Source: a virus
Length of the DNA stretch: 53,569 nucleotides
Direction: 5' to 3' (one strand)
IMG/VR virus record: IMGVR_UViG_3300045988_160359
Coordinates: 1-53,569 of that record
Positions 1 through 20,290 of this stretch are shown here, piece by piece. Position 1 is the stretch's first letter, and each line of letters opens with the position of its first letter. The notes under the pieces are model-generated. The model was given only the letters and a program-made list of their open reading frames with translations. It was not told the DNA's origin and did no database searches. The translations under genes were made by a program, and so were the position numbers.

Positions 1-11
1 CTTTCTTCATC

Positions 12-52
12 TTATATATATATTATATTATAAATTTATAAAAAAATCAAAT
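12..52. repeat. AT-rich ~40-45 bp element, copy 1
   Basis: tatatatatattatattataaatttataaaaaaatcaa is about 85% identical to the sequence at 2813..2855. The two copies are in direct orientation and flank the early gene block 87..2758. Confidence 0.45.
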
Positions 53-74
53 AAGAGTATTTGGCATCGCCAAA
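43..74. terminator. Hairpin terminator downstream of minus-strand gene 87..398
   Basis: Perfect 13-bp inverted repeat aagagtatttggc / gccaaatactctt. It is flanked by an A-run on one side and T-rich sequence on the other, so it could act on either strand. Confidence 0.5.
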
Positions 75-86
75 TACTCTTATATA

Positions 87-398
87 TTAGTGTCCAAAAT
101 CATAAATTGAGGTTTCGTATACGAATGAATCGTACTGACAGAGACGGAGGTCAGGCTCAATATCCTTCCACCAATCGGGGCAGTATGTAATCTCAGGATA
201 ATGTTCAGCGCGCTGACACATCTGAATATCATCATCCAGGAGTTCCTCGACAAATGCGAGACAAATCTCTTCGGCTTCTGCGCGGTCAATGCCGTGGAAA
301 ATATAGCGCTGGTCAGCATAGAGGGAATCGGGCTCGACAACAAATGCTTTGCGGATTTTAACAGCCATTTTCAATTCTCCTTGTATTGATTTTTCCAA
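87..398 (-). CDS. Hypothetical early protein (103 aa)
   Basis: Intact ORF in the standard code, in the same orientation as the whole early block. No motif recognised. Confidence 0.5.
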   Translation of the reverse strand: MEKSIQGELKMAVKIRKAFVVEPDSLYADQRYIFHGIDRAEAEEICLAFVEELLDDDIQMCQRAEHYPEITYCPDWWKDIEPDLRLCQYDSFVYETSIYDFGH

Positions 399-456
399 AA
401 TTATTTGGTATAATGATAATAGAAATATAAGGTGGTGAAAATCTTGACGAATTTAA

Positions 457-825
457 TTACGCATTATCATAATCAAATATATCTTCATAGTCGCGGTCGT
501 CGTCTATCGCTCGAATCGCGTAAGAATCAATATATTCATTACGCACATCAATGGACATTTCAATTGCGTCTCTATACATTTCTTTGGTTAATGCTGCTGA
601 TTTACCATTTTTGCGCGCGTTTTCTTCCAGTTCGGCAATTATATCATCGAGAGTAGGTAGACGATATTCATTTTCACACTCTTCATAGCGCAAGCAAGTT
701 TCATTGTATGCGCTAGCCTCGGCATCTTCATCATTGTCGAAACGGGCCGAGAACAGATATAGAAATGTGTCAGGTTCATCGACAGTTTCGATGTAGGAAT
801 AGAGATTATAGAGTTCCATTTTCAA
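457..825 (-). CDS. Highly acidic small early protein (122 aa), possible DNA mimic
   Basis: Intact ORF. By my count about 34 Asp/Glu against about 12 Lys/Arg, giving a strong net negative charge. The function is inferred only. Confidence 0.5.
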   Translation of the reverse strand: MKMELYNLYSYIETVDEPDTFLYLFSARFDNDEDAEASAYNETCLRYEECENEYRLPTLDDIIAELEENARKNGKSAALTKEMYRDAIEMSIDVRNEYIDSYAIRAIDDDRDYEDIFDYDNA

Positions 826-1158
826 ATGCCTCTTTAATTAGATTATCATCTTCTACTGGAACGGCGTAAAACCACATATCTACGGTAGTATTCATACAGT
901 ATTGTTTACGCCCGATAGCATCCATTAATTTAGAGTCGATACCTTTTTCAATAAGATAGGGATTCCGGTGCGCCAGGTCGATATAATCTTCAACTCGACC
1001 AATCTGAGGCTCCCACTCAAATTGACTGTCGATACATCGAGTGGCTGCATAGAGAGTGGCCTCATGGAAATTTTCAAACTCTTTTGATTTTTCTTGAATA
1101 CAAGGCGTTTCTCGGTCTGGCGAGAAAACATTATAATAGTAAATATTATACAGCATTA
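806..1158 (-). CDS. Hypothetical early protein
   Basis: The start is placed at the internal Met of MLYNIYYY, which is preceded by GGAGGAG. The track ORF runs 806..1210. Confidence 0.4.
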
Positions 1159-1364
1159 ATACGCTCTCCTCCGTCTCGACTTTCCCAAGCCTCAACGAGA
1201 CGCTTAGCATCCTGCGCGCAAATCGTGATAGGGGCGATATACTCAGACCCTCCGATAGGGAGAATTTTCAGTTTATTGCCGATGCCGATATAGAATGAAC
1301 TGATGGTGTCGAGGTCGATACAGAAACAGCCACAGTCTTCAAGGTTAATTCTAAATAGTGTCAT
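1146..1364 (-). CDS. Hypothetical small early protein
   Basis: The start is placed at MTLFRINLEDCGCF, preceded by GGAGGATGG. The track ORF runs 1146..1412. Confidence 0.4.
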   Translation of the reverse strand: MTLFRINLEDCGCFCIDLDTISSFYIGIGNKLKILPIGGSEYIAPITICAQDAKRLVEAWESRDGGERINAV

Positions 1365-1558
1365 TCTCTTCCATCCTCCGGTATCCAAATTACTGCCGGG
1401 ATTGCTTTCCATACTACTTCTGGAATATCGCCAAACTTATCGAGTGCCTTATCATAGGCATAGGTATCTGCGACGAGGGGATTATTTTCCTCGATAGTTT
1501 CAAGGTAATAAATCGCACCACGTTTGCCGATGTAGATGTCGTAGCCCTTACGTTTCAT
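1361..1558 (-). CDS. Hypothetical small early protein
   Basis: The start is placed at MKRKGYD, preceded by GGAGGAG. The track ORF runs 1361..1612. Confidence 0.4.
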   Translation of the reverse strand: MKRKGYDIYIGKRGAIYYLETIEENNPLVADTYAYDKALDKFGDIPEVVWKAIPAVIWIPEDGRE

Positions 1559-1686
1559 ACGCTCCTCCTGGTCAGTTTTGTTAAATTTAAGAATTTTGCC
1601 CAACGTGCTCACACATTAATGATTACGTCAGGCGAAGGAAAATTTGTTTTAGTCCGAGCAAGAAGCCAATTCTGGCGAATCTTGTT

Positions 1687-1854
1687 GAGTTATTCATCTT
1701 TTGTGGGAAACGGAAATTTATAGGAACCGCCATTTTTGAGAAGCATTACTGTGCTGAAATTTACCTCGCCATTATAGACTTTGGCGACACCAATGATTTC
1801 ACTGGCTTCAACGGTGAAGTAAGGAGAACCGTTATGCATTACTGTAAATATCAT
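1687..1854 (-). CDS. Small ORF (~55 aa) coupled to the upstream gene by an ATGA start/stop overlap
   Basis: Its ATG overlaps the TGA stop of gene 1851..2300. The sequence reads MIFTVMHNGSPYFTVEAS.... It is below the ORF-track size cutoff. Confidence 0.3.
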
Positions 1855-2300
1855 ATAACCTCCTGAATGTTAGCGCAGTATCGAAGTTGTTTATTACAAC
1901 TTTCTGTTTCAGCGTCCCAACAAGGACAACCTTTCTTACACGTAATGAGGATTCTGTCGGGGTTTTTTATAATCGTCTGTCCTATCATATTTCCCTGACG
2001 GATTTGTTTTTGTATTTGTTTCGGAAGTGGCGATGGGTCTGTTTCAAAAAGGCAGATATTCCCATTATGGCAATTATCACATGTAGACAGACGATTACAG
2101 CAATCTGAACAAACAATCTTATTACTTTTGCTATCATAAATTACCTCAGTATGGTGAATTTGACGGTGGCAAATGTCGCACTCGTAGCGTTTGCTACTGA
2201 ATGAGGCACAAGCAATGTTGTGAGAGATAGCCGGTTGTCCACTAATCTTACAGCGCATATCATCGAAATAGGCGCACTCTTTACAGGTTCTTTGCCACAT
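1851..2300 (-). CDS. Cysteine-rich multi-zinc-ribbon protein (149 aa)
   Basis: Many CxxC and CxxH pairs, for example CKEC, CDIC, CSDCC, CDNC and CPC. The function is unknown. Confidence 0.55.
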   Translation of the reverse strand: MWQRTCKECAYFDDMRCKISGQPAISHNIACASFSSKRYECDICHRQIHHTEVIYDSKSNKIVCSDCCNRLSTCDNCHNGNICLFETDPSPLPKQIQKQIRQGNMIGQTIIKNPDRILITCKKGCPCWDAETESCNKQLRYCANIQEVI

Positions 2301-2758
2301 TAGGTTTCATCTCCGTGGCTGGGCATCTCAATAGGGAGGCCGTTCTTAACGCACTCATTGATATATTCGATAGACTGCTGAGACAGAGGGAGTTTGTCAG
2401 AGGGGCCATAGTTGCCGCTGGTCAGATGCTTCTCAATTTCCTTCATAACTTCATCAGTCTTTTCTGCGGACAGCACAGAATTAACATTCTTAAATTGAAC
2501 ATTTTTGTCCTCGCGCGCGTAATCGCTGCTGAAATAGTCGTACTTGGTAATCTTATCAGCAATCCAGTCGGGCGTCAGGAGGACTTCACCGGGCTCCATA
2601 CCTTCAATTTTGATATCCGCGATGTCTTCATCATCAACCATATCACAAACCTTCTCAACCGCATTGGCATAATTTTCGGCATATACGAAACCGTGAGCAT
2701 TCTGTTCAGCGCCATCGAAGAAATGGACGTCGAAACGATAAAAGCCGGCAGCATTCAT
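2300..2758 (-). CDS. Hypothetical early protein (152 aa)
   Basis: Intact ORF preceded by GGAGG. It is the last GC-richer gene before the AT-rich island. Confidence 0.5.
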   Translation of the reverse strand: MNAAGFYRFDVHFFDGAEQNAHGFVYAENYANAVEKVCDMVDDEDIADIKIEGMEPGEVLLTPDWIADKITKYDYFSSDYAREDKNVQFKNVNSVLSAEKTDEVMKEIEKHLTSGNYGPSDKLPLSQQSIEYINECVKNGLPIEMPSHGDET

Positions 2759-2812
2759 ATTTATTACCTCCTGATTAGTTGTAGTTGAACTGTTGTTAAT
2801 TCATTTCTTATT

Positions 2813-2855
2813 GTTTATATATATATTATATAAAAATTTTTATTAAAAATCAATT
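2813..2855. repeat. AT-rich ~40-45 bp element, copy 2, at the left edge of the AT-rich island
   Basis: tatatatatattatataaaaatttttattaaaaatcaa. Compare with 12..52. Confidence 0.45.
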
Positions 2856-2940
2856 AATTATACATTGTACGGCACGCGGAGGACAAAATAGGACAAACAT
2901 ATAAATTATATTTTCAAGATATGGTGAGAGGTGATAAAAA

Positions 2941-3096
2941 TTGGCAAATGAGAATAATACAGTTAAAATCAGTGTTAGACTGACACAAACTGAGAAAGAT
3001 GAATTACAAAATTTTGCCCAAGCGCAGGATTTAACAATGTCTCAGGTTATACGCAAGGCATTGAAAGAGTATATGAATAAAACAGACAGAATCTAA
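2941..3096 (+). CDS. Ribbon-helix-helix (Arc/CopG/omega-like) DNA-binding protein, ~51 aa, TTG start
   Basis: The translation ...VKISVRLTQTEKDELQNFAQAQDLTMSQVIRKALKEYM has the typical RHH beta-strand plus two helices. The TTG start lies 6 nt after GAGAGGTGA. It is below the ORF-track cutoff. Confidence 0.5.
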   Translation: MANENNTVKISVRLTQTEKDELQNFAQAQDLTMSQVIRKALKEYMNKTDRI

Positions 3097-3111
3097 GGAG
3101 TTGCCAAATTA

Positions 3112-3330
3112 ATGCTAAATACTAATAAAAGAAAAATTATATACTCATTAAGAGTATATGTAGGGCTTAAAGAACGAGGGTTTATCCCTATTGCAACAAC
3201 AGAAAATCCTACCAAACCTAATTTTATGTGTTGGATATTTGAACGGTCAGATGAGTTTGATGATGCATTAAAAGAACTTATGCCTGAATGTAAAAATTAT
3301 AAGTCAGGTGGTGAAAAGTCTAATGGCTGA
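3112..3330 (+). CDS. Hypothetical 72-aa protein
   Basis: ATG preceded by AAGGAG. The stop overlaps the start of the next gene as ATGGCTGA. Confidence 0.45.
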   Translation: MLNTNKRKIIYSLRVYVGLKERGFIPIATTENPTKPNFMCWIFERSDEFDDALKELMPECKNYKSGGEKSNG

Positions 3331-3766
3331 TGTTGAAAAACGTTTTGTATTTTATGGAGAATGGTTAAACAATATTAAATCATTAGATTAGGCCACTTAG
3401 GATAAGGTTATTGCTGATATTGTGCGTTATGGCACTAATGAAGATATGTTTTATAGTGATGACCCTGTGGTATCAACTATTGTTAATTTTACCAAAGGGG
3501 CAATTGACCATTCAAAAGATGAATATTTAAAAAAGGTTATGGCAGGTAAAACAAATGGTAGAAAGAAATCTGTTGATGATGATTAGATATTAAAACTTGC
3601 GAGAGAAGGTAAAACCGCGAGTTAGATTGCGGAATTATTGAATTTGAGTGTGAGTTCAGTGAATCATAGCGAGGGATGGAAGCGTCGTAAAGAATCAGTT
3701 GCTGAAAAATCAGTCGTTGAAGAATCGGTGCTTGAATAGAAAAAACCAGTTGAGTTTATATTTTAA
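3323..3766 (+). CDS. DNA-binding protein with a C-terminal resolvase-type HTH; needs read-through of 5 in-frame TAG codons
   Basis: When TAG is read as sense, the single frame gives ...GRKKSVDDD-x-ILKLAREGKTAS-x-IAELLNLSVSSV. Gln fits the HTH consensus at TAS-Q-IAELL. Under the standard code the ORF is only 21 aa long. Confidence 0.5.
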
Positions 3767-3950
3767 TTGCAAATTTGCAAAAATGTTTTTGCAAATTAAT
3801 TGCAATGCAATGCAAAAATGTTTTGCAAATTTTGCAAGTTTGATTGCAACTTGTTGCAATTGCAAATTGCATTATATAATATATATTTTTGCAAAAAAAT
3901 TGCAAAGTTTTTGCAAATTGCAAAAACTTATTTGCAATTTTATTTGACAA
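3766..3950. repeat. Dense array of about 15 copies of the palindromic hexamer TTGCAA, mostly as TTTGCAAA or ATTGCAAT
   Basis: Directly visible in the sequence, for example ttgcaaatttgcaaaaatgtttttgcaaattaattgcaatgcaatgcaaaa...ttgcaattgcaaattgca. Confidence 0.7.
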
Positions 3951-4327
3951 AACTAACGCTGTGGCACTTGAAAAGTGGCAGTAATGGAAAATTTGGAATA
4001 AAAAGTTCCTATTAATGTATAAATATAATATATAAAAAGGATGTATATGGGTATGATAAATTTTTATAAAGGTTCTTATGAGAATTTAGTAAGTAAAGCA
4101 TTAAATTTTTAGAAAATAGATAATATATATTTAACTAATAATAATGATTTATATTTTTGTATTGAGGAAGCAGGAAGGGTAAATAAGGACGTAGAGAATC
4201 CATTTTTAAATGATAATATAAATGAAATATATGGGTTTAATATATAAAAATAAGAAATAAGCGCATACTTACTTTTTATTTGAATTTAATTAGAAAAATT
4301 ATAAATAGGTAAAAGGAGAAATAAAAA

Positions 4328-4807
4328 ATGGGTTATCATAGTGGATTAAATGGGGAATATAATATTCCTGTGGAAGTAAATAATAAGAATGTAGCGCATT
4401 TTAAAAGATGCTGTAAAGAAGAAGTGCCTGAAAAGGCAATTAAAATAGAAACATATTTAAAAGATGATACAATCTATTTTGTATTACCAAATAATTATAA
4501 ACCTGTAAAGATTTGTTTTGATAGTAATGAAGAAGATAAATGCTATGCCTATGGTGGTAAGGGCAATAAAAAGTTGAATACTAATATTGATTTTACTTCA
4601 TCAGACCCTCGTACTACTGGATATTATTAGAATAATGATTATGTAAATATTAGTGATACGACAGATTACGCATAGCCTAATAATACTTATGTTTCTATAT
4701 TTGATTCTCTTCTGGATTTAAGTAAACAAGTAAATGCTATGGGGTATAAAGCAGAAGACGCTAGTGATGTATTAAATAATATATTTGATAAGTTATATAG
4801 TAAATAA
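4328..4807 (+). CDS. Hypothetical protein (~159 aa) with 2 in-frame TAG codons
   Basis: RBS AAAGGAG. Track ORF 4328..4630 ends at a TAG. The same frame then continues to a TAA at 4805-4807. Confidence 0.45.
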
Positions 4808-4961
4808 TTAACAAGGTTAATATTGTGGCATTTGATTTATATATAAAATTATTATATAATATTTATATATAAGAATAGGAGGTGCCATTTTTGAAATTTC
4901 ATTTGAAAAATGGGGTATAAATAGACATTTTGAAAAATGAAATGAAAAAATGAAATGAAAA

Positions 4962-5345
4962 ATGAAAAATGAATTTACTTATGATGAATTGAAAAATAAA
5001 TACAGTAAAAGAGTTGGAAATTATAAAGGCAGAGATGTAATTGTACGCTCTAAATATGATGATTTGGGCGATAATGTATATATTTTATATGATTATAACA
5101 ATGCCCTTATTGTTGATGGCTATTGGATTGCGACTATCAGTGAAGATGGTAGTTTAAATCATAGAAGAGCAACACCCTGGATTAAGATGGATCGAGCCTC
5201 GCCGGCGGGCAGGCCACTAACGTGTCCTGAAAGTGATTCGGGTGGCGAGAATGATATTAGTCTTGATGTTGACTCAACTCTCGTTGATTCTCTCTTGGAA
5301 TCGGCGTATAATGATATTTTGAGCGATTTGATGTATAAAGAATAA
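4962..5345 (+). CDS. Hypothetical protein (127 aa)
   Basis: Intact ORF preceded by an ATGAAA repeat leader. Confidence 0.45.
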   Translation: MKNEFTYDELKNKYSKRVGNYKGRDVIVRSKYDDLGDNVYILYDYNNALIVDGYWIATISEDGSLNHRRATPWIKMDRASPAGRPLTCPESDSGGENDISLDVDSTLVDSLLESAYNDILSDLMYKE

Positions 5346-5347
5346 AA

Positions 5348-5388
5348 AAATGGAGTGGTTTATCGCCACTCCATTTTTTTTAACCAAT
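5348..5388 (+). terminator. Rho-independent terminator closing the island operon
   Basis: ggagtggtttatcgccactcc hairpin followed by tttttttt and preceded by an A-run. Confidence 0.6.
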
Positions 5389-5770
5389 GATGTTTTTTTT
5401 GACTTATAACGCTTTTTTGAATCTGAGGTTAATACTTATTTAATTGTTTTATCTCCTAATAAACTAAATTAAATAAACCTATTAGCGGGGTTAATGAATA
5501 TAATTGTAAATAACGAATAATGGAACCTTATAATGTTTTTTCTTAATAACAAAATGATTATGGTAGAATGATGATAGTTTTGAAAAATTGAAAAATGAGA
5601 AAATGATGGAAGTTTGGTGCCCCCGCTCGGTACCAACTCATCACTCAATTTCATCGTTATCGTCATCCTCTGAATTTTTCAAGATACCCTTTCCAAAAAA
5701 CGTCGAGCCCAGGTATTCTAATCGCCAATTTCCCAAATAAAAAATACCTGGGCCGACACGTTAATCGAAA

Positions 5771-6145
5771 TTAAATGCGAGAAATCCAGTCGTTGAGAAT
5801 TTCGTCTACGGTTTTACCTTTCTTAATCGCACCCTTAGAGTTTGTCTCAAACCGGAAACCAGGCAGTTCAATCTTGAAGTTACCAGGGTCCTTGTAGAAT
5901 TTAAGGAAGTTGTCCATTACCTTAATGACGTCCTCGCCCTTCAACTCTGCACCCTTATAGCCGACGTAGGCCGCATAGTCGTTGATAGCATCGGCAACCG
6001 CTTCCGCTCGGGCCATCTTTTCTTTGTCCTTCTTCTGGTCAGCATATGCCTTGGTGGCGTCATTTAGCATCGCAGTCATTTCCTTAGCAATATCCTCAGC
6101 GCTCTCGCCATTCATTAAGCGCGTCAGAATATCGTTCTTATTCAT
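5771..6145 (-). CDS. Hypothetical early protein (124 aa)
   Basis: Intact ORF. Confidence 0.5.
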   Translation of the reverse strand: MNKNDILTRLMNGESAEDIAKEMTAMLNDATKAYADQKKDKEKMARAEAVADAINDYAAYVGYKGAELKGEDVIKVMDNFLKFYKDPGNFKIELPGFRFETNSKGAIKKGKTVDEILNDWISRI

Positions 6146-6249: not shown

Positions 6250-6490
6250 TTTTTTATGTCAAACCGGGCGGCATATGGGTACCGCTCGGGGCCCTTTACG
6301 GGATTTTTAGGGCGCATATGGAGGCCGCTAGAATTACGGAAAATTTTCCATATGGGGGTACAGATCGGAATTTCGGACCGCAGCGCCCGCGCTCGGCCCG
6401 TTGTATCCTCCCCTTTTATTATACCACACTGGGCTCGCGCTGTCAATAGGCAAAATGAACAAAAATTAAGGGTGGATTTCTCCACCCTTA
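6250..6490 (-). promoter_or_regulatory. Variant terminator-promoter-leader module upstream of 5771..6145
   Basis: On the minus strand the gggtggagaaatccaccc hairpin plus T-run terminator is followed by TTGACA-N17-TATAAT and a long GC-rich leader. Confidence 0.4.
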
Positions 6491-7103: not shown

Positions 7104-7227
7104 AGTAGTATCTCCTTGCTGTTGGTGGGTTCCAGCTCCCTCAGATTGTTTATAGTATAGCGCATTTCGGGACAAAATGCAATAGTCAATTTATACAAAC
7201 TTTCGCTGGAAAAATTATTGAAAATGT

Positions 7228-7350
7228 GTATTGACAAAAATGCCGGGCGCCACAATCGTGAGCGCCCGGTTCATTATACCACAGTCAGAGGGTGTTGTCA
7301 ATAGTCAAATTGAATAAAAAAATTGCTCTCAATTGAGAGCAATTTGATAA
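7228..7350 (-). promoter_or_regulatory. Promoter / hairpin / terminator module, minus-strand promoter only
   Basis: On the minus strand TTGACA-N17-TATAAT is followed by the conserved hairpin ccgggcgcc...ggcgcccgg. The aaattgctctcaattgagagcaattt hairpin sits at the gene boundary. Confidence 0.5.
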
Positions 7351-8894: not shown

Positions 8895-9050
8895 AAAAAC
8901 ACTTGACAAAATTTGTGCTCCGTGGTATAATGGAAATTTCGGGTGCCATAGCCGTGAGCGCCCGACCCATTTTAACACATTTGAGCGCATTTGTCAATAG
9001 GTAAAATGCACAAAAATAAACCAGCGTAGTTGGCTACTACGCTGGTTCCC
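8895..9050. promoter_or_regulatory. Convergent-promoter / hairpin / terminator module
   Basis: The plus strand has TTGACA-N17-TATAAT at ~8903-8931. The minus strand has TTGACA-N17-TAAAAT at ~8997-8969. Between them lies the hairpin cgggtgccatagccgtgagcgcccg. The accagcgtagttggctactacgctggt hairpin follows. Confidence 0.55.
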
Positions 9051-10194: not shown

Positions 10195-10340
10195 AAAAAA
10201 CGCTTGACAAAATTGCCAGTGGGGGTGTATAATAGAAATTTCGAGCGCCACATACGTGGACGCGCGACCGAATTATACCACACGCGCCCGGATTTGTCAA
10301 TAAGCAAAATGCACAAAAATGAGGGAGATTTCTCTCCCTC
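10195..10340. promoter_or_regulatory. Convergent-promoter / hairpin / terminator module
   Basis: Plus strand TTGACA-N18-TATAAT and minus strand TTGACA-N17-TATAAT. The central hairpin is gcgccacatacgtggacgcgc. On the minus strand a gagggagagaaatctccctc hairpin plus T-run terminator follows. Confidence 0.55.
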
Positions 10341-10746: not shown

Positions 10747-11178
10747 TTACGCGCTCACCTTGCGGAAGAACGCCTTGCGCTTGTCCTCCACGCGCTCCAC
10801 CTGCTTATCCAGCACCATCTGCCGGACGAGGGAGGACAGCTTCTGATTGCTCATGTCCTTGCAGACGGGGAACTCTTTGAGCATCTCGCTGATGGAATAC
10901 AGCCGGTTGCTCTCCATAGCGGACAGGACAGTGGTCTTGATGACCTCATTCTCCTGCTGGGTCTTGGTGGGCTTCTTATCCACGGTGTTCTTGCGGTCGA
11001 GCAGGTCGATTTCGTGGGTGATGAACTCCACCAGCTTGGGGTCAGCCTTGACCTCGGACAGGTTCAGCAGGGCGGTGAAATTGTCGCGCTTGGTGGGCTT
11101 GCGGGTGGTGGTGTTAGTGTTAGCCATAGTATCAATTCCTTTCTCCATTTGGTTTTGAGGGCTTTGCCCTCCTGACAT
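10747..11178 (-). CDS. Cassette protein A'
   Basis: Paralogous to 8183..8635. The true start may be the internal Met of MANTNTTT at about 11127. Confidence 0.5.
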   Translation of the reverse strand: MSGGQSPQNQMEKGIDTMANTNTTTRKPTKRDNFTALLNLSEVKADPKLVEFITHEIDLLDRKNTVDKKPTKTQQENEVIKTTVLSAMESNRLYSISEMLKEFPVCKDMSNQKLSSLVRQMVLDKQVERVEDKRKAFFRKVSA

Positions 11179-11880
11179 TATCTATTATAACAGCTTGCGC
11201 TGGGATTGTCAAGAGTTTTTTCAAAATTCTTGATTTTTTTTGATAGTGTCAACAGGGGAACGCTCCACAAGGGTTCACAGACGACTTACCACCTCGCCTG
11301 ACGAATAAGGTGTTGCTGTTGGTTCAACGTTTCCATGCGCATGGACGAACTGACCAATCTACTCACTTTTCGTTCATCGTTTGGGTTTACTGCGCTGGTA
11401 TAGTCCTTACTTCCTTTACTCTCACACGGTTCGCGACCCGTGGATTTCTTGGGTGGGGCTATTCCCCTCTTGACATTATCAATTATAACACAGGTGCTGG
11501 GGATTGTCAAGAGGTTTTTTGAAATTTTTCCAAATTTCTGAAACCTGTCTACACAGGCGACACATTAGACGCATCTGCCGTGCCGTTCCCCTCTTGACAT
11601 TATCCATTATAACACAGATGCTGGGGATTGTCAAGAGGGGAAATGCGGGTCAGTTACCGAGTTGTCACACCCGCCAGCGTGGCTCCCCCGAGGAGCAACT
11701 TGCTGTCCCCTCTTAACATTATTCATTATAGCACCTTTGATGGAGTTTGTCAAGAGGGAATTTTGGTCTTTTTTTTCAGTACGGCGCGCTCTCACTTACA
11801 CTTGGGACATTACCTACCATTAGCCCAGCCCACGGGGTCTCACCCCCTCTTGACATTATGTAGTATAGCACAGGTGAGCA
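11165..11880 (-). repeat. Tandem array of five ~50-bp palindromic promoter repeats (CTCTTGACA ... TGTCAAGAG)
   Basis: Copies at ~11168, 11464, 11590, 11707 and 11845. On the minus strand each reads TTGACA-N17-TATAAT(TATAGC). They are separated by 70-250 nt of non-coding sequence. Confidence 0.6.
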
Positions 11881-11929
11881 TGAATTACAATAGGCAAACT
11901 ATACAAGTTTCGGGAAAAATAAATAAAAA

Positions 11930-12090
11930 AATTTGTGTAAAAAAACTCTTGACAAAATTGCTGGCGGGGTGTATAATGGTGAATTCCGGCCGAGACGCGC
12001 GAAATCGGCCGGCCATTATACCATGCCCAGGCGCGTTTGTCAATAGGGAAAATTATACAAAAAATGAGGGGAAAATCCCCTCATTTTTTA
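11930..12090. promoter_or_regulatory. Convergent-promoter / hairpin / terminator module
   Basis: TTGACA-N17-TATAAT on both strands. The central hairpin is ccggccgagacgcgcgaaatcggccgg. A bidirectional terminator follows: gaggggaaaatcccctc with A/T runs on both sides. Confidence 0.55.
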
Positions 12091-12621
12091 GTCCATCTGA
12101 CAAGCGAGAAATGCGTCCCGCTTTTCGTTCAGTTTGACGATTTCACCCGCGATTTTGTCAGCCCTCATAGCCAACAGACGCCCATAGCTTCTGCGCCACG
12201 CCAGCATACCATCGGGATTGACCGTGTAAATATACTTTTCCTTTTCCACGGTCTTGGTGTCCTTACGCTCCGTGCGGAAATTCTGTCCATTCATAGTCCG
12301 CAGAGCGTTCTGCGCCACTTCCGGCAACCGCATCCAGTCATACTCGGTCATCAGGGCGTTGCCATCCTTGTCAATCATCCAGATTTCCGCTTCCCACGGG
12401 TCGAGCGTGATTTCCTTGGTGGATTTCTCGGTGCGAACTGCCTTGATGATACCCTCGTCCCGCAGGAACGCCAGAGAATTGTAGGTGTATCGCCGATAGT
12501 CGTGCTTTGCTTTGGTGAAGTCCTCGGAAGTGAACTCCTTATTCCCGAACAGGTCTACCAGCCACTTGTAGGTCTTGACCGTGCGGTTGAAGTTGTGAAC
12601 GTTAGCGTAGCGAGCTTTCAT
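12088..12621 (-). CDS. Hypothetical early protein (177 aa)
   Basis: Intact ORF. Confidence 0.5.
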   Translation of the reverse strand: MKARYANVHNFNRTVKTYKWLVDLFGNKEFTSEDFTKAKHDYRRYTYNSLAFLRDEGIIKAVRTEKSTKEITLDPWEAEIWMIDKDGNALMTEYDWMRLPEVAQNALRTMNGQNFRTERKDTKTVEKEKYIYTVNPDGMLAWRRSYGRLLAMRADKIAGEIVKLNEKRDAFLACQMD

Positions 12622-12733
12622 AGTTTTTCTCCTTTTCTATTGGTGGGGCTTACCATCGTTTCCCCTACCTTGAATTTGTAATGTTATTATAGCATGGAAT
12701 GGGGGCGTTGTCAACCCCCATTCCAAACTTTTT

Positions 12734-12949: not shown

Positions 12950-13016
12950 TGTACTTACCTCCTTGTTTTAGTATAGTCATTATACCACATGAGAAAGGGG
13001 CTGTCAAGCCCCATTC

Positions 13017-13673
13017 TCAAAACTTGGGAAAACATTTTACCTCAAAGGGCGCGTCCCATGCGTGGACGTTCTTGGTGTATCGCTTGTGCATCTTCTGACA
13101 GGCGAGGAAAATTTCCATTTCCTGCATAGCGTCAGACAGGGCGGTGTGTTCTTCGGAAAAGTCGGGGTTATCGTGGAGATAACCATACACCGCTTCGACA
13201 GAGGTTGCACAGGTCTTGCCATTCTTGGAACGCTTGCCATGCTCTCGGCAGTATTCCGCATAGGACTTTTTGTGGGTGATAGTTTCCAGTGCCATCAGAT
13301 AAAGGTCGATGAACTCGAAATTATCCAGCAGGTCGCGGAAACAGGTCTTGCAGAAGTCAAAACCGGAATTGTACGCCATCACATAGCGAACGCCGTAATG
13401 GTCGCACAGGTTTTTGACTACCTCATAGGCTTCGCGCTCCGTGGCGATAGCGGAGATTTCGCCAGTTTTGAGCCGTTCGGCATATACGGGAAAATTCTTC
13501 TTGGCGTAGCCATCGAGGGCGATTTCGTCATAATGCTCCATCACCAGCAGGGAAGTGGTGGCGAGGATTTCGCCCTTGCGGTCGTGGATAATCGCGCCCA
13601 CATTATACATTCCCGTGGGGTGAGCCGCGCCGCCTACCGTTTCAGTGTCCAGCGTGCAGTAGATATTTTTCAT
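13017..13673 (-). CDS. DnaQ-like DEDDh 3'-5' exonuclease
   Basis: Exo I LDTETVG, Exo II YNSGFDF and Exo III HTALSDA. Confidence 0.6.
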   Translation of the reverse strand: MKNIYCTLDTETVGGAAHPTGMYNVGAIIHDRKGEILATTSLLVMEHYDEIALDGYAKKNFPVYAERLKTGEISAIATEREAYEVVKNLCDHYGVRYVMAYNSGFDFCKTCFRDLLDNFEFIDLYLMALETITHKKSYAEYCREHGKRSKNGKTCATSVEAVYGYLHDNPDFSEEHTALSDAMQEMEIFLACQKMHKRYTKNVHAWDAPFEVKCFPKF

Positions 13674-13784
13674 TATTCATTCTCCTTTTCTCTTGGTTGG
13701 GCTTACCATCGTTTCCCATACCTTAATTACATTACATATTATAGCAGACAGGGGTGAGGTTGTCAACCCCTGTCTGCTATTTTT

Positions 13785-14231: not shown

Positions 14232-14384
14232 AGTATCAACTTCCTTTCTTGATTGTAATGCTATTATACAGGATAAAACGCAATTTGTCAACAGTTTTTT
14301 TCGGTTTTGCTCTTGGTCATTTCGCACAAACTTTCGGGATGCGCGCTTGGGCAAATTTGTTCAATTTACCTATTGACAAAATTG

Positions 14385-14520
14385 CTGGCAGGGTGTATAA
14401 TGGAAATTTCGAGCGCCAGGGCCGTGGGCGCTCGGCCGAGTATACCACAAATAGGGGTGTTTGTCAATAGGTAAATTGAACAAAAAAAATCTCCCAAATT
14501 TGGGAGATTTTTCAATTTAC
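14385..14520. promoter_or_regulatory. Convergent-promoter / hairpin / terminator module
   Basis: Plus strand TTGACA-N17-TATAAT. Minus strand TTGACA-N17-TATACT. Hairpin tcgagcgccagggccgtgggcgctcgg. Terminator tctcccaaatttgggaga. Confidence 0.55.
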
Positions 14521-17953: not shown

Positions 17954-18022
17954 TTTGATATTCTCCTTTCTCTTGGTATTATCTATTATAGCAGATAAGG
18001 ACTTGTTTGTCAAGCCCTTATC

Positions 18023-18352: not shown

Positions 18353-18422
18353 TTTTTCGTCCTCCCTTGTTTTGTTATACTCATTATAGCAGAAATGGGG
18401 CTTGTTGTCAAGCCCCAATTTT

Positions 18423-18746
18423 CTACTTTACTACATAAAATTCGGGGTGGCGTTCTTCATTCTTGCGAATGCGCTTGACCAACTGTTGAGGTAAGCGGTT
18501 TTTGCCAGCACTCTTGTATATAGCGACAGCCCGTTCAAAGGTTGCGGGGTATGCGGTGATGATGAAATTCTCATATAAGTCCAGCACCAAAATGATGCCA
18601 GTCGAGAGCAAACGCAGGCGCGCAGTTTGGCGTTGGTCAATGACCTCAATCATCACGCGGTCAGAATATCCGAGATATTCCTGTAAGAGGGCGAGCCGGT
18701 TAGCCCGCTCCTCTGTCAGATGGTTCGACATAGTGTAGTTTTCCAT
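18423..18746 (-). CDS. Hypothetical protein (~107 aa)
   Basis: The start is placed at MENYTMSN after GGGGTGG. The track's 186-aa ORF fuses it with the upstream gene. Confidence 0.4.
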   Translation of the reverse strand: MENYTMSNHLTEERANRLALLQEYLGYSDRVMIEVIDQRQTARLRLLSTGIILVLDLYENFIITAYPATFERAVAIYKSAGKNRLPQQLVKRIRKNEERHPEFYVVK

Positions 18747-18928: not shown

Positions 18929-19044
18929 AATGACCTCCTTTAATTGATGGTATAAGTATAGCATACCTACTGGGCGTTGTCAACCGTCAAATTGCACAAA
19001 TTTCGGGATAAAAAATTGTTGAAAATACCGAACACAAAATGCTT

Positions 19045-19190
19045 GACAAATTGGCTGGGCTGTGGTATAATGGAATTTCCGGCCGCAACAGTCGTGGGCG
19101 GCTGGCCAAATTATACCATAGAAATGCTATTTTGTCAATAGGCAAAATGCACAAAAAAATGAGCCAAAATTTGGCTCATTTTATAATTCC
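19045..19190. promoter_or_regulatory. Convergent-promoter / hairpin / terminator module
   Basis: TTGACA-N17-TATAAT on both strands. Hairpin ccggccgcaacagtcgtgggcggctgg. Terminator gagccaaaatttggctc. Confidence 0.55.
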
Positions 19191-20062: not shown

Positions 20063-20174
20063 GACCTCCTCTGTTTTATGTATACAGTATAGCACAGGGG
20101 TGCGTGAATGTCAATAGTCAAAATGCACAAATTTCGGGATTTGGAATGTATAATTTTTGTTCATAATGCCTATT

Positions 20175-20290
20175 GACAAAATTGTTGGGACATGGTATAA
20201 TGGTAAATTTCGCGCGCCAGGGCCGTGGGCGCGCGACCGAGTATAGCACAAATGGGGCGCGTTGTCAACAGGCAAAATGACCAAAATTTT
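20175..20290. promoter_or_regulatory. Convergent-promoter / hairpin module
   Basis: Plus strand TTGACA-N17-TATAAT. Minus strand TTGACA-N17-TATACT. Hairpin tcgcgcgccagggccgtgggcgcgcga. Confidence 0.55.

Follow-up and report, generated by a model that had tools for sequence, protein, structure and literature searches.

Tandem consensus promoters interleaved with predicted structured-RNA modules upstream of a two-gene operon in an IMG/VR phage genome

The viral record IMGVR_UViG_3300045988_160359 (of which positions 1 to 53,569, a stretch of 53,569 nucleotides, are called the window here) contains a gene-free region of ~960 bp, at about 11131-12095, which is read on the minus strand and whose core is an array of repeated promoters (the array interval, 11165-11880). 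The initial annotation of this DNA had described the interval as five tandem palindromic promoters with non-coding spacers, and had proposed either a T7-like battery of promoters for the host RNA polymerase or a set of short structured RNAs. Read along the minus strand, the region begins with a bidirectional terminator and a face-to-face promoter module, continues with promoters 5 to 1, which have modules D, C, B and A (the last called unit A) between them, and ends in a hairpin leader followed by two genes. These features are, from upstream to downstream:

12059-12089, bidirectional: intrinsic terminator, a 14-bp perfect inverted repeat with A and T runs at its flanks (terminator scan and fold)
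11949-12043: face-to-face module, a perfect plus-strand promoter (11949-11977) converging on a perfect minus-strand promoter (12043-12015), with a GC-rich hairpin between them (alignment of six paralogous copies, folds)
11862-11890, minus: promoter 5, weaker, TTGTAA-N17-TATACT with TG extension
11748-11858, minus: module D, putative non-coding transcript of promoter 5 up to the -35 hexamer of promoter 4; closing stem forms, fold z = -1.5
11725-11753, minus: promoter 4, perfect (12/12) with TG extension
11629-11721, minus: module C, predicted 93-nt panhandle RNA with two internal hairpins, fold z = -5.2
11606-11634, minus: promoter 3, perfect (12/12) with TG extension
11505-11602, minus: module B, predicted 98-nt panhandle RNA, fold z = -5.8
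11482-11510, minus: promoter 2, ahead of unit A, perfect (12/12) with TG extension
11216-11477, minus: unit A, ~265-nt member of a structured-RNA-like family (fold z = -3.96 relative to shuffled sequences, nhmmer, covariation)
11247-11258, minus: relic -35-type arm CCCCTGTTGACA with no -10 hexamer behind it, the 3' strand of the closing helix of unit A; unreported in the promoter scan
11184-11212, minus: promoter 1, operon-proximal, perfect (12/12) with TG extension
11131-11177, minus: operon 5' leader, hairpin GAGGGC-AAA-GCCCUC (11157-11171), then the Shine-Dalgarno (SD) sequence GAAAGGAA and an ATG at 11130
10747-11130, minus: first operon gene, 127 aa, orphan, predicted helical hairpin and winged helix
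10339-10695, minus: second operon gene, 118 aa, orphan; no promoter between both genes

The terminator at 12059-12089 is predicted to end both the upstream gene (12088-12621, minus strand) and a putative plus-strand RNA of ~110 nt, and would form the upstream edge of the control region. The minus-strand partner of the face-to-face module is the most upstream (sixth) promoter aimed into the array. In relatives, the leader hairpin is found at the same place with a different sequence. After the second gene of the window there is a terminator-like hairpin together with the next face-to-face module (~10204-10340).

A repeat search of the window returned a 53-nt direct repeat in five copies (11164-11216, 11462-11514, 11586-11638, 11705-11757 and 11842-11894), with steps of 298, 124, 119 and 137 between successive copies, and this family is confined to the array interval. 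The five tandem copies with complementary arms described initially are present far beyond chance, but with a gap that had been set two nucleotides too short: since the arms are 29 nt apart, a pattern search with the literal CTCTTGACA-N27-TGTCAAGAG gives no match, whereas CTCTTGACA-N29-TGTCAAGAG gives five at three or fewer mismatches (0.02 expected), all inside the array interval. Two of these matches are perfect, two have one mismatch, and the fifth has three mismatches because its right arm is degenerate. The minus-strand TTGACA-N17-TATAAT that had been assigned to every copy is perfect (12/12) in four of the five, each with a TG extension (-35 hexamers starting at 11212, 11510, 11634 and 11753), but the fifth copy matches at 9/12 only, also with the TG extension. 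In relatives this fifth promoter reads TTGTAA or TTGCAA plus TGnTATAAT or TACAAT, with a better extended -10. A further perfect promoter of the same direction (12043-12015) lies just upstream of the array, so that four promoters at 12/12, one at 9/12 and one additional at 12/12, spaced 119-298 bp apart, provide at least three same-orientation consensus host promoters at ~100-150 bp. The terminator scan found no minus-strand terminator between 12058 and 11131. A battery that drives an early operon, as had been suggested, is supported by the sequence and by the synteny described below, with no terminator found between the promoters and a two-gene operon after them, but its designation as the first early operon is unsupported, the array standing amid about 40 similar promoters of an 18-kb region. 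Titration of RNA polymerase, if any, would belong to this whole region and not to the array alone.

The interval had also been considered probably non-coding, and this assessment holds. The open reading frame (ORF) 11286-11510 starts inside a promoter, at the TTG of a -35 hexamer, and no SD-preceded ORF longer than 31 aa is found in the interval when code 11 and the TAG-sense, TGA-sense and TAA-sense readings are compared. A protein-coding frame in an alternative code, which would have spoken against the non-coding assignment, is thus not convincingly present under any of the four codes. Hidden coding was rejected, since the only candidates are unconserved peptides of 1-31 aa, and a 2-nt indel in module C, together with whole-module indels, breaks the frames (the differences between relatives are indels of whole modules or of lengths other than 3n). 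Among the remaining minus-strand promoters at 6-24 kb, about 26 are followed by a strong SD and a small ORF (at least 40 aa, at +18 to +68) and can therefore be described as one-promoter, one-gene cassettes, whereas none of the array promoters has such an ORF within 200 nt.

In each of the 28 related loci compared (24 from IMG/VR, numbered with the prefix L like the other loci, and four from further contigs), the orthologous winged-helix gene has a tandem promoter array before it. The 24 IMG/VR loci, on contigs of 12-198 kb (most >80 kb) and with protein identities of 38-99%, all have 2-5 tandem consensus promoters directly upstream of the gene, with a spacing of ~90-125 bp; the four further contigs (~200 kb, 66-88% identity) have the same layout, and independent gene calls leave a gap of 700-850 nt there. 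A third clade also keeps the order of face-to-face module, one or two short modules, long module, last promoter and gene. Copy number, for which the initial annotation had suggested a comparison among relatives, varies freely between two and five promoters, and the module content is reshuffled. Even near-identical phages differ in this respect: module B is missing in L016 and module D in L017-L020, a different module (altC) replaces C in L015, and in L028 the linker of promoter 2 is joined to the last leader. All breakpoints of these module indels map to the repeated promoter/+1 sequence. The short modules are of no fewer than seven types (B, C, D, altC, X, Y and Z), whose distribution is a mosaic, with C and altC occurring in more than one clade; homologues of C occur in the clade of the window and in the third clade (L044, L056), B is restricted to the clade of the window, and D is found only in the window, L015 and L041. 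The 17-nt promoter linker was considered as a neutral yardstick for the distant clade, in which L027-L037 are too alike and the linker of the last promoter is itself invariant. Genes of homing-endonuclease type (GIY-YIG at 338-1081 in L040; HNH at 7852-8403 in L041) stand at differing sites in the early regions of close relatives and add to the mosaicism there.

Unit A, the long module between promoters 2 and 1, consists of an invariant core (CCCANGAAATCC-[hairpin]-GA.AGTA.AGGAAGTA), a hypervariable apical hairpin and a terminal stem of ~23 bp, which extends well past the arm shared with the other modules and shows a C-G to U-A change in L020 and L041. Its interior has 88-93% nucleotide identity (76-94% for the flanking coding genes), being as well conserved as these or better, and remains recognisable across clades in which the neighbouring protein is ~40% identical. 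The core motif was recovered from 24 viral contigs and from a 164-kb contig assigned to an uncultured Mollicutes metagenome-assembled genome (MAG), and a profile of unit A (nhmmer) finds a shorter homologue of ~140 nt at a different position in the L027-L037 clade. Of the 19 newly found instances, every one has a promoter of its own, and 18 stand directly before a further promoter with its leader (the nineteenth extends beyond the end of its locus); two clades have the orthologue of 10747-11130 as the next gene, and the short-form clade has other genes there. The MAG contig (L061, CAMELE010000001.1, 163,874 bp, from the GTDB species-representative genome 'uncultured Mollicutes bacterium') has the control region complete: face-to-face module, short module, unit-A member and orthologous gene are all there. 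Probably a phage genome was binned into this MAG, which constitutes either a weak hint to the host or a binning artefact.

The predicted structure of unit A is retained through sequence change. In the 5' hairpin, 100% of 90 cells are paired, compared with 17-56% in slid controls, and four of the six pairs vary, two of them on both sides (C-G to A-U and U-A to A-U changes, in either direction). Over the whole unit, for 19 long-form sequences and 30 consensus pairs, 98.9% are paired vs 22-50% in slid controls, with four doubly changed pairs in three helices. The structure belongs to the promoter-sense strand, because ~30 G-U cells would become A-C mismatches on the opposite strand. Beside the covarying helices there are invariant single-stranded motifs, CCCAAGAAAUCC and GAGARAGUARAGGAAGUAA, and the apical hairpin, although wholly different in sequence between variants, can be drawn as a local hairpin in each of them (from reading of the alignment). 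These compensatory changes on the presumably transcribed strand argue, with moderate strength because independent substitution events are few, for unit A as a conserved structured RNA. Rfam 15 gives no hit at gathering score in the window, none over any module at E <= 10, and none at E <= 1 for the unit-A homologues in four other loci, which makes unit A a candidate for a new RNA family outside Rfam.

For the short modules, folded from the predicted start site to the next -35 hexamer, the situation is more varied. B, C and altC fold into panhandles via the repeat arms (z = -5.2 to -5.8). Module C keeps both of its hairpins with different stems in the third clade (consensus fold with three doubly changed pairs), and the alignment of module B contains one C-G to U-A compensatory change, in L018. 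The alternative of short structured RNAs is thus supported in its general form, with most folds at z = -4 to -6 and the long module in a conserved family with compensatory changes, but the spacer hairpin that had been named as an example (GTCTA...TAGAC) lies outside the minimum-energy fold of module B. Each module has the SD-like AAGAGGGG at about +8 to +15, and unit A has in addition AAAGGAAG in its interior, none with a usable start codon. The arms are made of the CCTC-TTGACA flank of one promoter and the SD-like transcript start TGTCAAGAGG. The term palindromic, which had been used for these promoters, calls for a caveat: the arms pair about as well over the promoter as they do over the spacer. 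Unrelated low-GC phages have such an arm design as well, singly and ahead of real genes or a tRNA, and in distant relatives of this phage only the CCUCUU/AAGAGG complementarity is left. The palindrome is then partly a by-product of a common promoter-plus-leader design, which is extended to 12-14 nt in the clade of the window.

On balance, and by a modest preference over its rivals, we favour an explanation in which stacked early promoters and structured leader or small RNA (sRNA) modules feed the two-gene operon. Six same-direction promoters of the host sigma-A/sigma-70 type, five in the array interval and one in the adjoining face-to-face module, would be used, and every promoter but the last would precede a transcribed non-coding module in place of a gene. 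Each module would start ~3 nt past the predicted start site with an SD-like purine tract (UGUCAAGAGGGG) and contain at least one hairpin; its 3' end is CCUCUUGACA, the upstream flank and -35 of the next promoter, and the RNA can therefore close into a panhandle. Since no terminator was found on the way, RNA started at any of these promoters should continue into the operon. The array could then play two roles, as a stacked battery giving very high early transcription of the operon, and as a source of abundant structured RNAs. The modules could stay on the mRNA as protective or processable 5' leaders (a 5'-terminal stem plus an SD-like 'stabiliser'), or they could be cut out, either at the single-stranded, AU-rich cores of the promoters or inside the long stems, and so become separate small RNAs. 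Modules would be deleted, duplicated and swapped when the ~50-nt promoter repeats recombine. What the computation establishes is the repeats, the promoter matches, the missing coding potential, the synteny, the module mosaicism and the covariation of unit A. Promoter firing, start sites, transcript ends, read-through, processing and a stabilising or trans-acting role of the RNAs are all predictions from the DNA sequence.

Several observations weigh against this explanation. The short modules are individually dispensable, since close relatives freely gain and lose them. Not all of them fold well: module D (z = -1.5) is no better than shuffled sequences, nor is either of two distant-clade modules (z = -0.7 and -1.4). 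For the short modules, arm pairing is 80% Watson-Crick across the promoter and 75% across the spacer, and since both pairings are equally good, an RNA panhandle is inseparable from a promoter-spanning hairpin or a palindrome at the DNA level. In unit A, the few independent covariation events are mostly at clade level, one set of alignments served both to predict the structures and to score them, and individual sequences break some of the pairs (L016 and L039 have C-A at 20/233). Finally, an additive output of the stacked promoters is not guaranteed, because strong tandem promoters can occlude one another.

The strongest rival, which overlaps with the favoured explanation but which we regard as clearly less probable, is that each promoter-module pair is an autonomous gene for a trans-acting sRNA, the read-through into the operon being incidental. 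Such RNAs might regulate by base pairing, or they might sequester ribosomes, an RNA-binding protein, an RNase or a host defence, as decoys or sponges. The unit-A family indeed keeps its own promoter everywhere while standing upstream of different genes in different clades, and the downstream gene is independent of it, because each such gene has its own promoter and leader. Furthermore, invariant single-stranded motifs flank the covarying helices, the short modules are conserved across clades as a shared pool, and stable RNAs typically have both of their ends within a helix, as predicted here. Nevertheless, these RNAs would have no terminator or other defined 3' end and no Rfam match, the dispensability of the individual short modules speaks against them, and the search for antisense targets in the 53.6-kb window (about a quarter of the ~200-kb genome, host excluded) gave only chance-level matches of 10-15 nt. 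In a bolder version, which we put forward just as tentatively, the array would be a shuffling library of promoter-bracketed structured RNAs (an 'sRNA cassette array'), including a hitherto undescribed 140-270-nt family with an exposed SD-like motif, which would act in trans during host takeover, for instance as such sponges, and be exchanged between phages by recombination at the promoters, in the manner of the PeSL elements (promoter-early stem-loops) of T4-like phages considered below.

It is also conceivable, though unlikely, that only the promoters matter, in which case the spacers would merely separate the footprints of RNA polymerase, and their structure would be a by-product of the repeated arms and of recent ancestry. 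The spacing of 119-137 bp does resemble that of classic tandem batteries such as T7 A1-A3, and the free variation of promoter number fits such a view, as do the folding energies of the short modules, which come largely from the repeat arms, and the arm complementarity of single promoters before ordinary genes in unrelated phages. What this proposal leaves unexplained is the conservation of the unit A interior, its recognisability across clades and the compensatory changes in its three helices, as well as the two hairpins that module C keeps with different stem sequences.

Two further proposals we consider improbable, to a similar degree. In one of them, the modules are empty or decayed gene cassettes without function, left behind by promoter-to-promoter recombination in a hyperplastic early region. 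This is suggested by the one-promoter, one-gene cassettes of the early region, by the indel breakpoints in the promoter repeats, and by a stretch of unit A (AGUAAAGGAAGUAAGCCCUAUACC) that resembles the ribosome-binding site and start region of the downstream gene (AGAAAGGAAUUGAUACUAUGGC) with the ATG lost; but scars would hardly be expected to hold one position in all relatives, down to a protein identity of 38%, with module families conserved across clades and covariation. In the other, the CTCTTGACA-N29-TGTCAAGAG repeats are operators bound by a phage repressor, plausibly the downstream winged-helix protein, for autoregulation or early shut-off. The MecI/MarR/ArsR-like winged helix predicted for that product, and the overlap of the arms with the -35 and +1 of each promoter, would suit an operator; however, half-sites 38 bp apart centre to centre are atypical for a winged-helix dimer, distant relatives retain array and gene with only 4-6 nt of CCTC/GAGG complementarity, the same arm design occurs in unrelated phages without this gene nearby, and the Foldseek E-values behind the protein assignment are weak (>= 7e-3). 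A transcription-primed replication origin, in which DNA synthesis would start from R-loops of purine-rich RNA near A/T-rich tracts (T4 oriF/oriG, the T7 primary origin and ColE1 being examples), is very improbable, for although purine-rich initial transcripts (AAGAGGGG) followed by A/T-rich tracts (11515-11545, 11895-11940) and clustered promoters without genes are present, the cumulative GC skew turns only at changes of gene orientation (~5 kb and ~25.5 kb) and not at the array, similar promoters and A-tracts are spread over 18 kb, and the covariation at the RNA level indicates a folded RNA rather than a hybrid.

The genes at the end of the array offer few clues. The 127-aa protein has 877 database homologues but neither a Pfam domain nor an informative name, and tblastn with it gives one unannotated 16-kb record at 37% identity, which is uninformative. 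Its AlphaFold2 model, a confident one (pLDDT 85.8), has an N-terminal helical hairpin and a C-terminal winged helix, with MecI/BlaI, MarR, ArsR and PadR-type DNA-binding domains as the nearest, although weak, Foldseek matches (E >= 7e-3); on this model it is probably a small winged-helix, DNA-binding protein. The second, 118-aa protein is an orphan in Pfam and PHROGs searches. Both proteins have a lysine-rich 'PTK(T)Q' linker motif (KKPTKTQQENEVIKTTVL and KANPTKQTIITLLTETL), and they may be distant paralogues or partners. Comparison of the neighbour proteins with Pfam, PHROGs, PADLOC and PDB sequences gave two identifications only, an NT5C-like nucleotidase and, further upstream, an exonuclease-like protein. 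The window has no DNA similarity match among deposited phages, and no genome terminus lies within it.

The array belongs to a larger domain of the window, at ~6-24 kb, which has 42-51% GC and reads well in the standard code, while the remainder has 25-35% GC. The promoter pattern has 47 matches in the window at no more than one mismatch (0.98 expected), nearly all on the minus strand and at 6-24 kb, and this 18-kb predicted early region has about 40 consensus promoters. Promoters without a gene in the region are those of the array, the minus-strand partners of six face-to-face modules, and two at 6446 and 7301. TAG appears to be recoded in the low-GC part (24000-53569 on the plus strand, and to some extent 1-6000): a TAG-sense reading gives 9,265 codons in stop-free stretches (2,771 in the longest), and the standard code 2,527 (380 in the longest). 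No suppressor tRNA was found in the window, and the tRNA/tmRNA scan also gave nothing over the modules. The 2,771-codon frame is reminiscent of the TAG-recoded phAss-1 group, with tape-measure genes >3,000 aa (PMC10607447). The 18-kb island between flanks of low GC, holding nearly all consensus promoters, suggests a sharp split between early and late regions of one phage; such a split of GC content is unmentioned in the GC-content passages of a preprint on recoding (10.1101/2021.08.26.457843). An assembly chimera is argued against by the low GC on both sides together with the same local layout in several independent related contigs.

Other promoter composites are found in the same region. The six paralogous face-to-face modules, of ~95 bp (8903-8997, 10204-10300, 11949-12043, 14373-14467, 19043-19138 and 20173-20268, with a half copy at 7273-7301), have convergent plus and minus consensus promoters around a GC-rich hairpin whose stem sequence varies but whose pairing is always kept. 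The plus promoter is predicted to give an RNA of ~110 nt ending at the bidirectional terminator of the upstream gene (fold z = -4.1 and -4.9), so that these modules are candidates for a family of cis-antisense sRNAs or for a promoter-interference device. At five other places on the minus strand (12686-12725, 12979-13018, 13738-13777, 17985-18022 and 18383-18423), promoters of genes have a 9-11-bp stem with the -35 hexamer as its loop (for example GGAATGGGGG-TTGACAACG-CCCCCATTCC), a second composite of promoter and stem-loop in a PeSL-like arrangement. A structured 5' leader, AAGGTAGGGGAAACGATGGTAAGCCCCACCAA...GAAAAGGAG, precedes two different genes (12630-12685 and 13680-13737, minus strand) and occurs also in distant relatives (~3717-3770 in L027-L037); such leaders seem to be shuffled as modules, like the promoters. 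The perfect ORF-less promoter at 7301 (7215-7301, minus strand) has a GC-rich hairpin and a T-run directly after it, with a predicted transcript of ~45 nt, and the one at 6446 (6380-6446, minus strand) is followed by ~150 nt of GC-rich non-coding sequence and then by promoters at 6262 and 6206, 56 bp apart.

New here is the stacking of several gene-less promoter modules in one conserved place, the use of putative structured RNAs as shuffled cargo, and the candidate unit-A family absent from Rfam. If the modules are transcribed as predicted, the cassette-shuffling logic of the PeSLs would operate also in unrelated TAG-recoded large gut phages of Firmicutes-type hosts, and such shuffling could carry non-coding RNA cargo. 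Unit A, with its invariant core, covarying helices and placement between promoters, is a concrete candidate for a new phage RNA family whose function is directly testable. The combination of stacked consensus promoters, 5' stems and SD-like tracts may represent a natural design for very strong, insulated early expression, which could serve expression engineering in Gram-positive bacteria. Additionally, it would add detail at the level of transcription to the model in which recoded phages run a standard-code early programme on the host machinery before the code switch.

Among known systems, phage T7 has tandem early promoters for the host RNA polymerase, A1-A2-A3, at the genome end that is first to enter the cell, with the RNase III site R0.3 downstream of them. 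The array resembles A1-A3 in having at least three strong same-orientation host-type promoters, at a spacing of ~100-130 bp, ahead of the first gene that they would drive, and it resembles R0.3 in having a long double-stranded RNA element (here the ~23-bp stem of unit A) between upstream promoters and gene. Unlike in T7, however, the array consists of promoters that repeat one another almost exactly and have complementary arms; the segments between them show conservation, structure and shuffling, one more promoter comes after the structured element, and the array lies within about 40 similar promoters; cleavage in unit A is suggested only by analogy. Phage phi29 has the tandem early promoters A2b/A2c and the pRNA, a structured phage RNA with pairing 5' and 3' ends. 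It shares with our locus tandem early promoters ~100 bp apart and a (here predicted) promoter-driven structured RNA with paired ends, but there is no match to a pRNA model, the genomes are unrelated in type and size, and nothing links unit A to packaging.

The SP82 polypurine tract is a 5' stabiliser of Gram-positive mRNA. In the STAB-SD of Gram-positive bacteria, likewise, an SD-like tract near the mRNA 5' end protects the RNA from 5'-dependent decay (PMC4113751). By 30S binding, such a stabiliser lengthens the half-life of the RNA downstream of it. The array has SD-like purine tracts near predicted 5' ends with no start codon after them, a likeness of sequence. The host-takeover module of phage SPO1 groups small early genes whose promoters and ribosome-binding sites are those of highly expressed genes (PMC6873191). 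The region around the array is, similarly, a cluster of small early genes with strong promoters and ribosome-binding sites, although without sequence or protein homology to SPO1, which has not been described with arrays of gene-less promoter modules. The alternation of conserved repeats with variable, possibly processed spacers also gives the array a superficial likeness to CRISPR or ToxI arrays. CRISPR arrays have identical repeats of 23-47 nt, unique spacers of even length and usually cas genes, and a CRISPR-like reading was given low weight: the 53-nt repeats are promoters, and the spacers (66-246 nt) are structured and shared between genomes. No cas, toxN or defence genes were found near the array (Pfam, PHROGs, PADLOC), and no CRISPR repeat model has a hit in the window.

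The closest structural parallel is offered by the PeSLs of T4-like phages, which are composite elements of AT-tract, promoter, stem-loop and SD at which recombination inserts and deletes cargo (PMC2839356, PMC4122927). Their ~100-bp composite of AT-rich tract, strong sigma-70-like promoter, promoter-overlapping stem-loop and SD is present in the array in all its parts, namely A-tracts upstream, consensus hexamers, 9-14-nt arms flanking the linker and -10, and the SD-like AAGAGGGG. As with the PeSLs, the elements are repeated through a hyperplastic early region of small orphan genes, and the indel breakpoints lie within them. The differences are that the cargo of the array is non-coding instead of ORFan genes, that the genome context is not T4-like, and that lineage and host type differ (Firmicutes-style promoters and SDs in a TAG-recoded genome); moreover, a PeSL includes a stem-loop that can terminate or attenuate transcription, and the array stem has a 29-nt loop and no U-tract on the sense strand, the T-run after the stem being on the opposite strand. 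By descent, the array is not a member of the T7 battery, the PeSLs or the SPO1 module. By analogy, the region would work like the T7 A1-A3 battery while being built like the PeSL cassettes.

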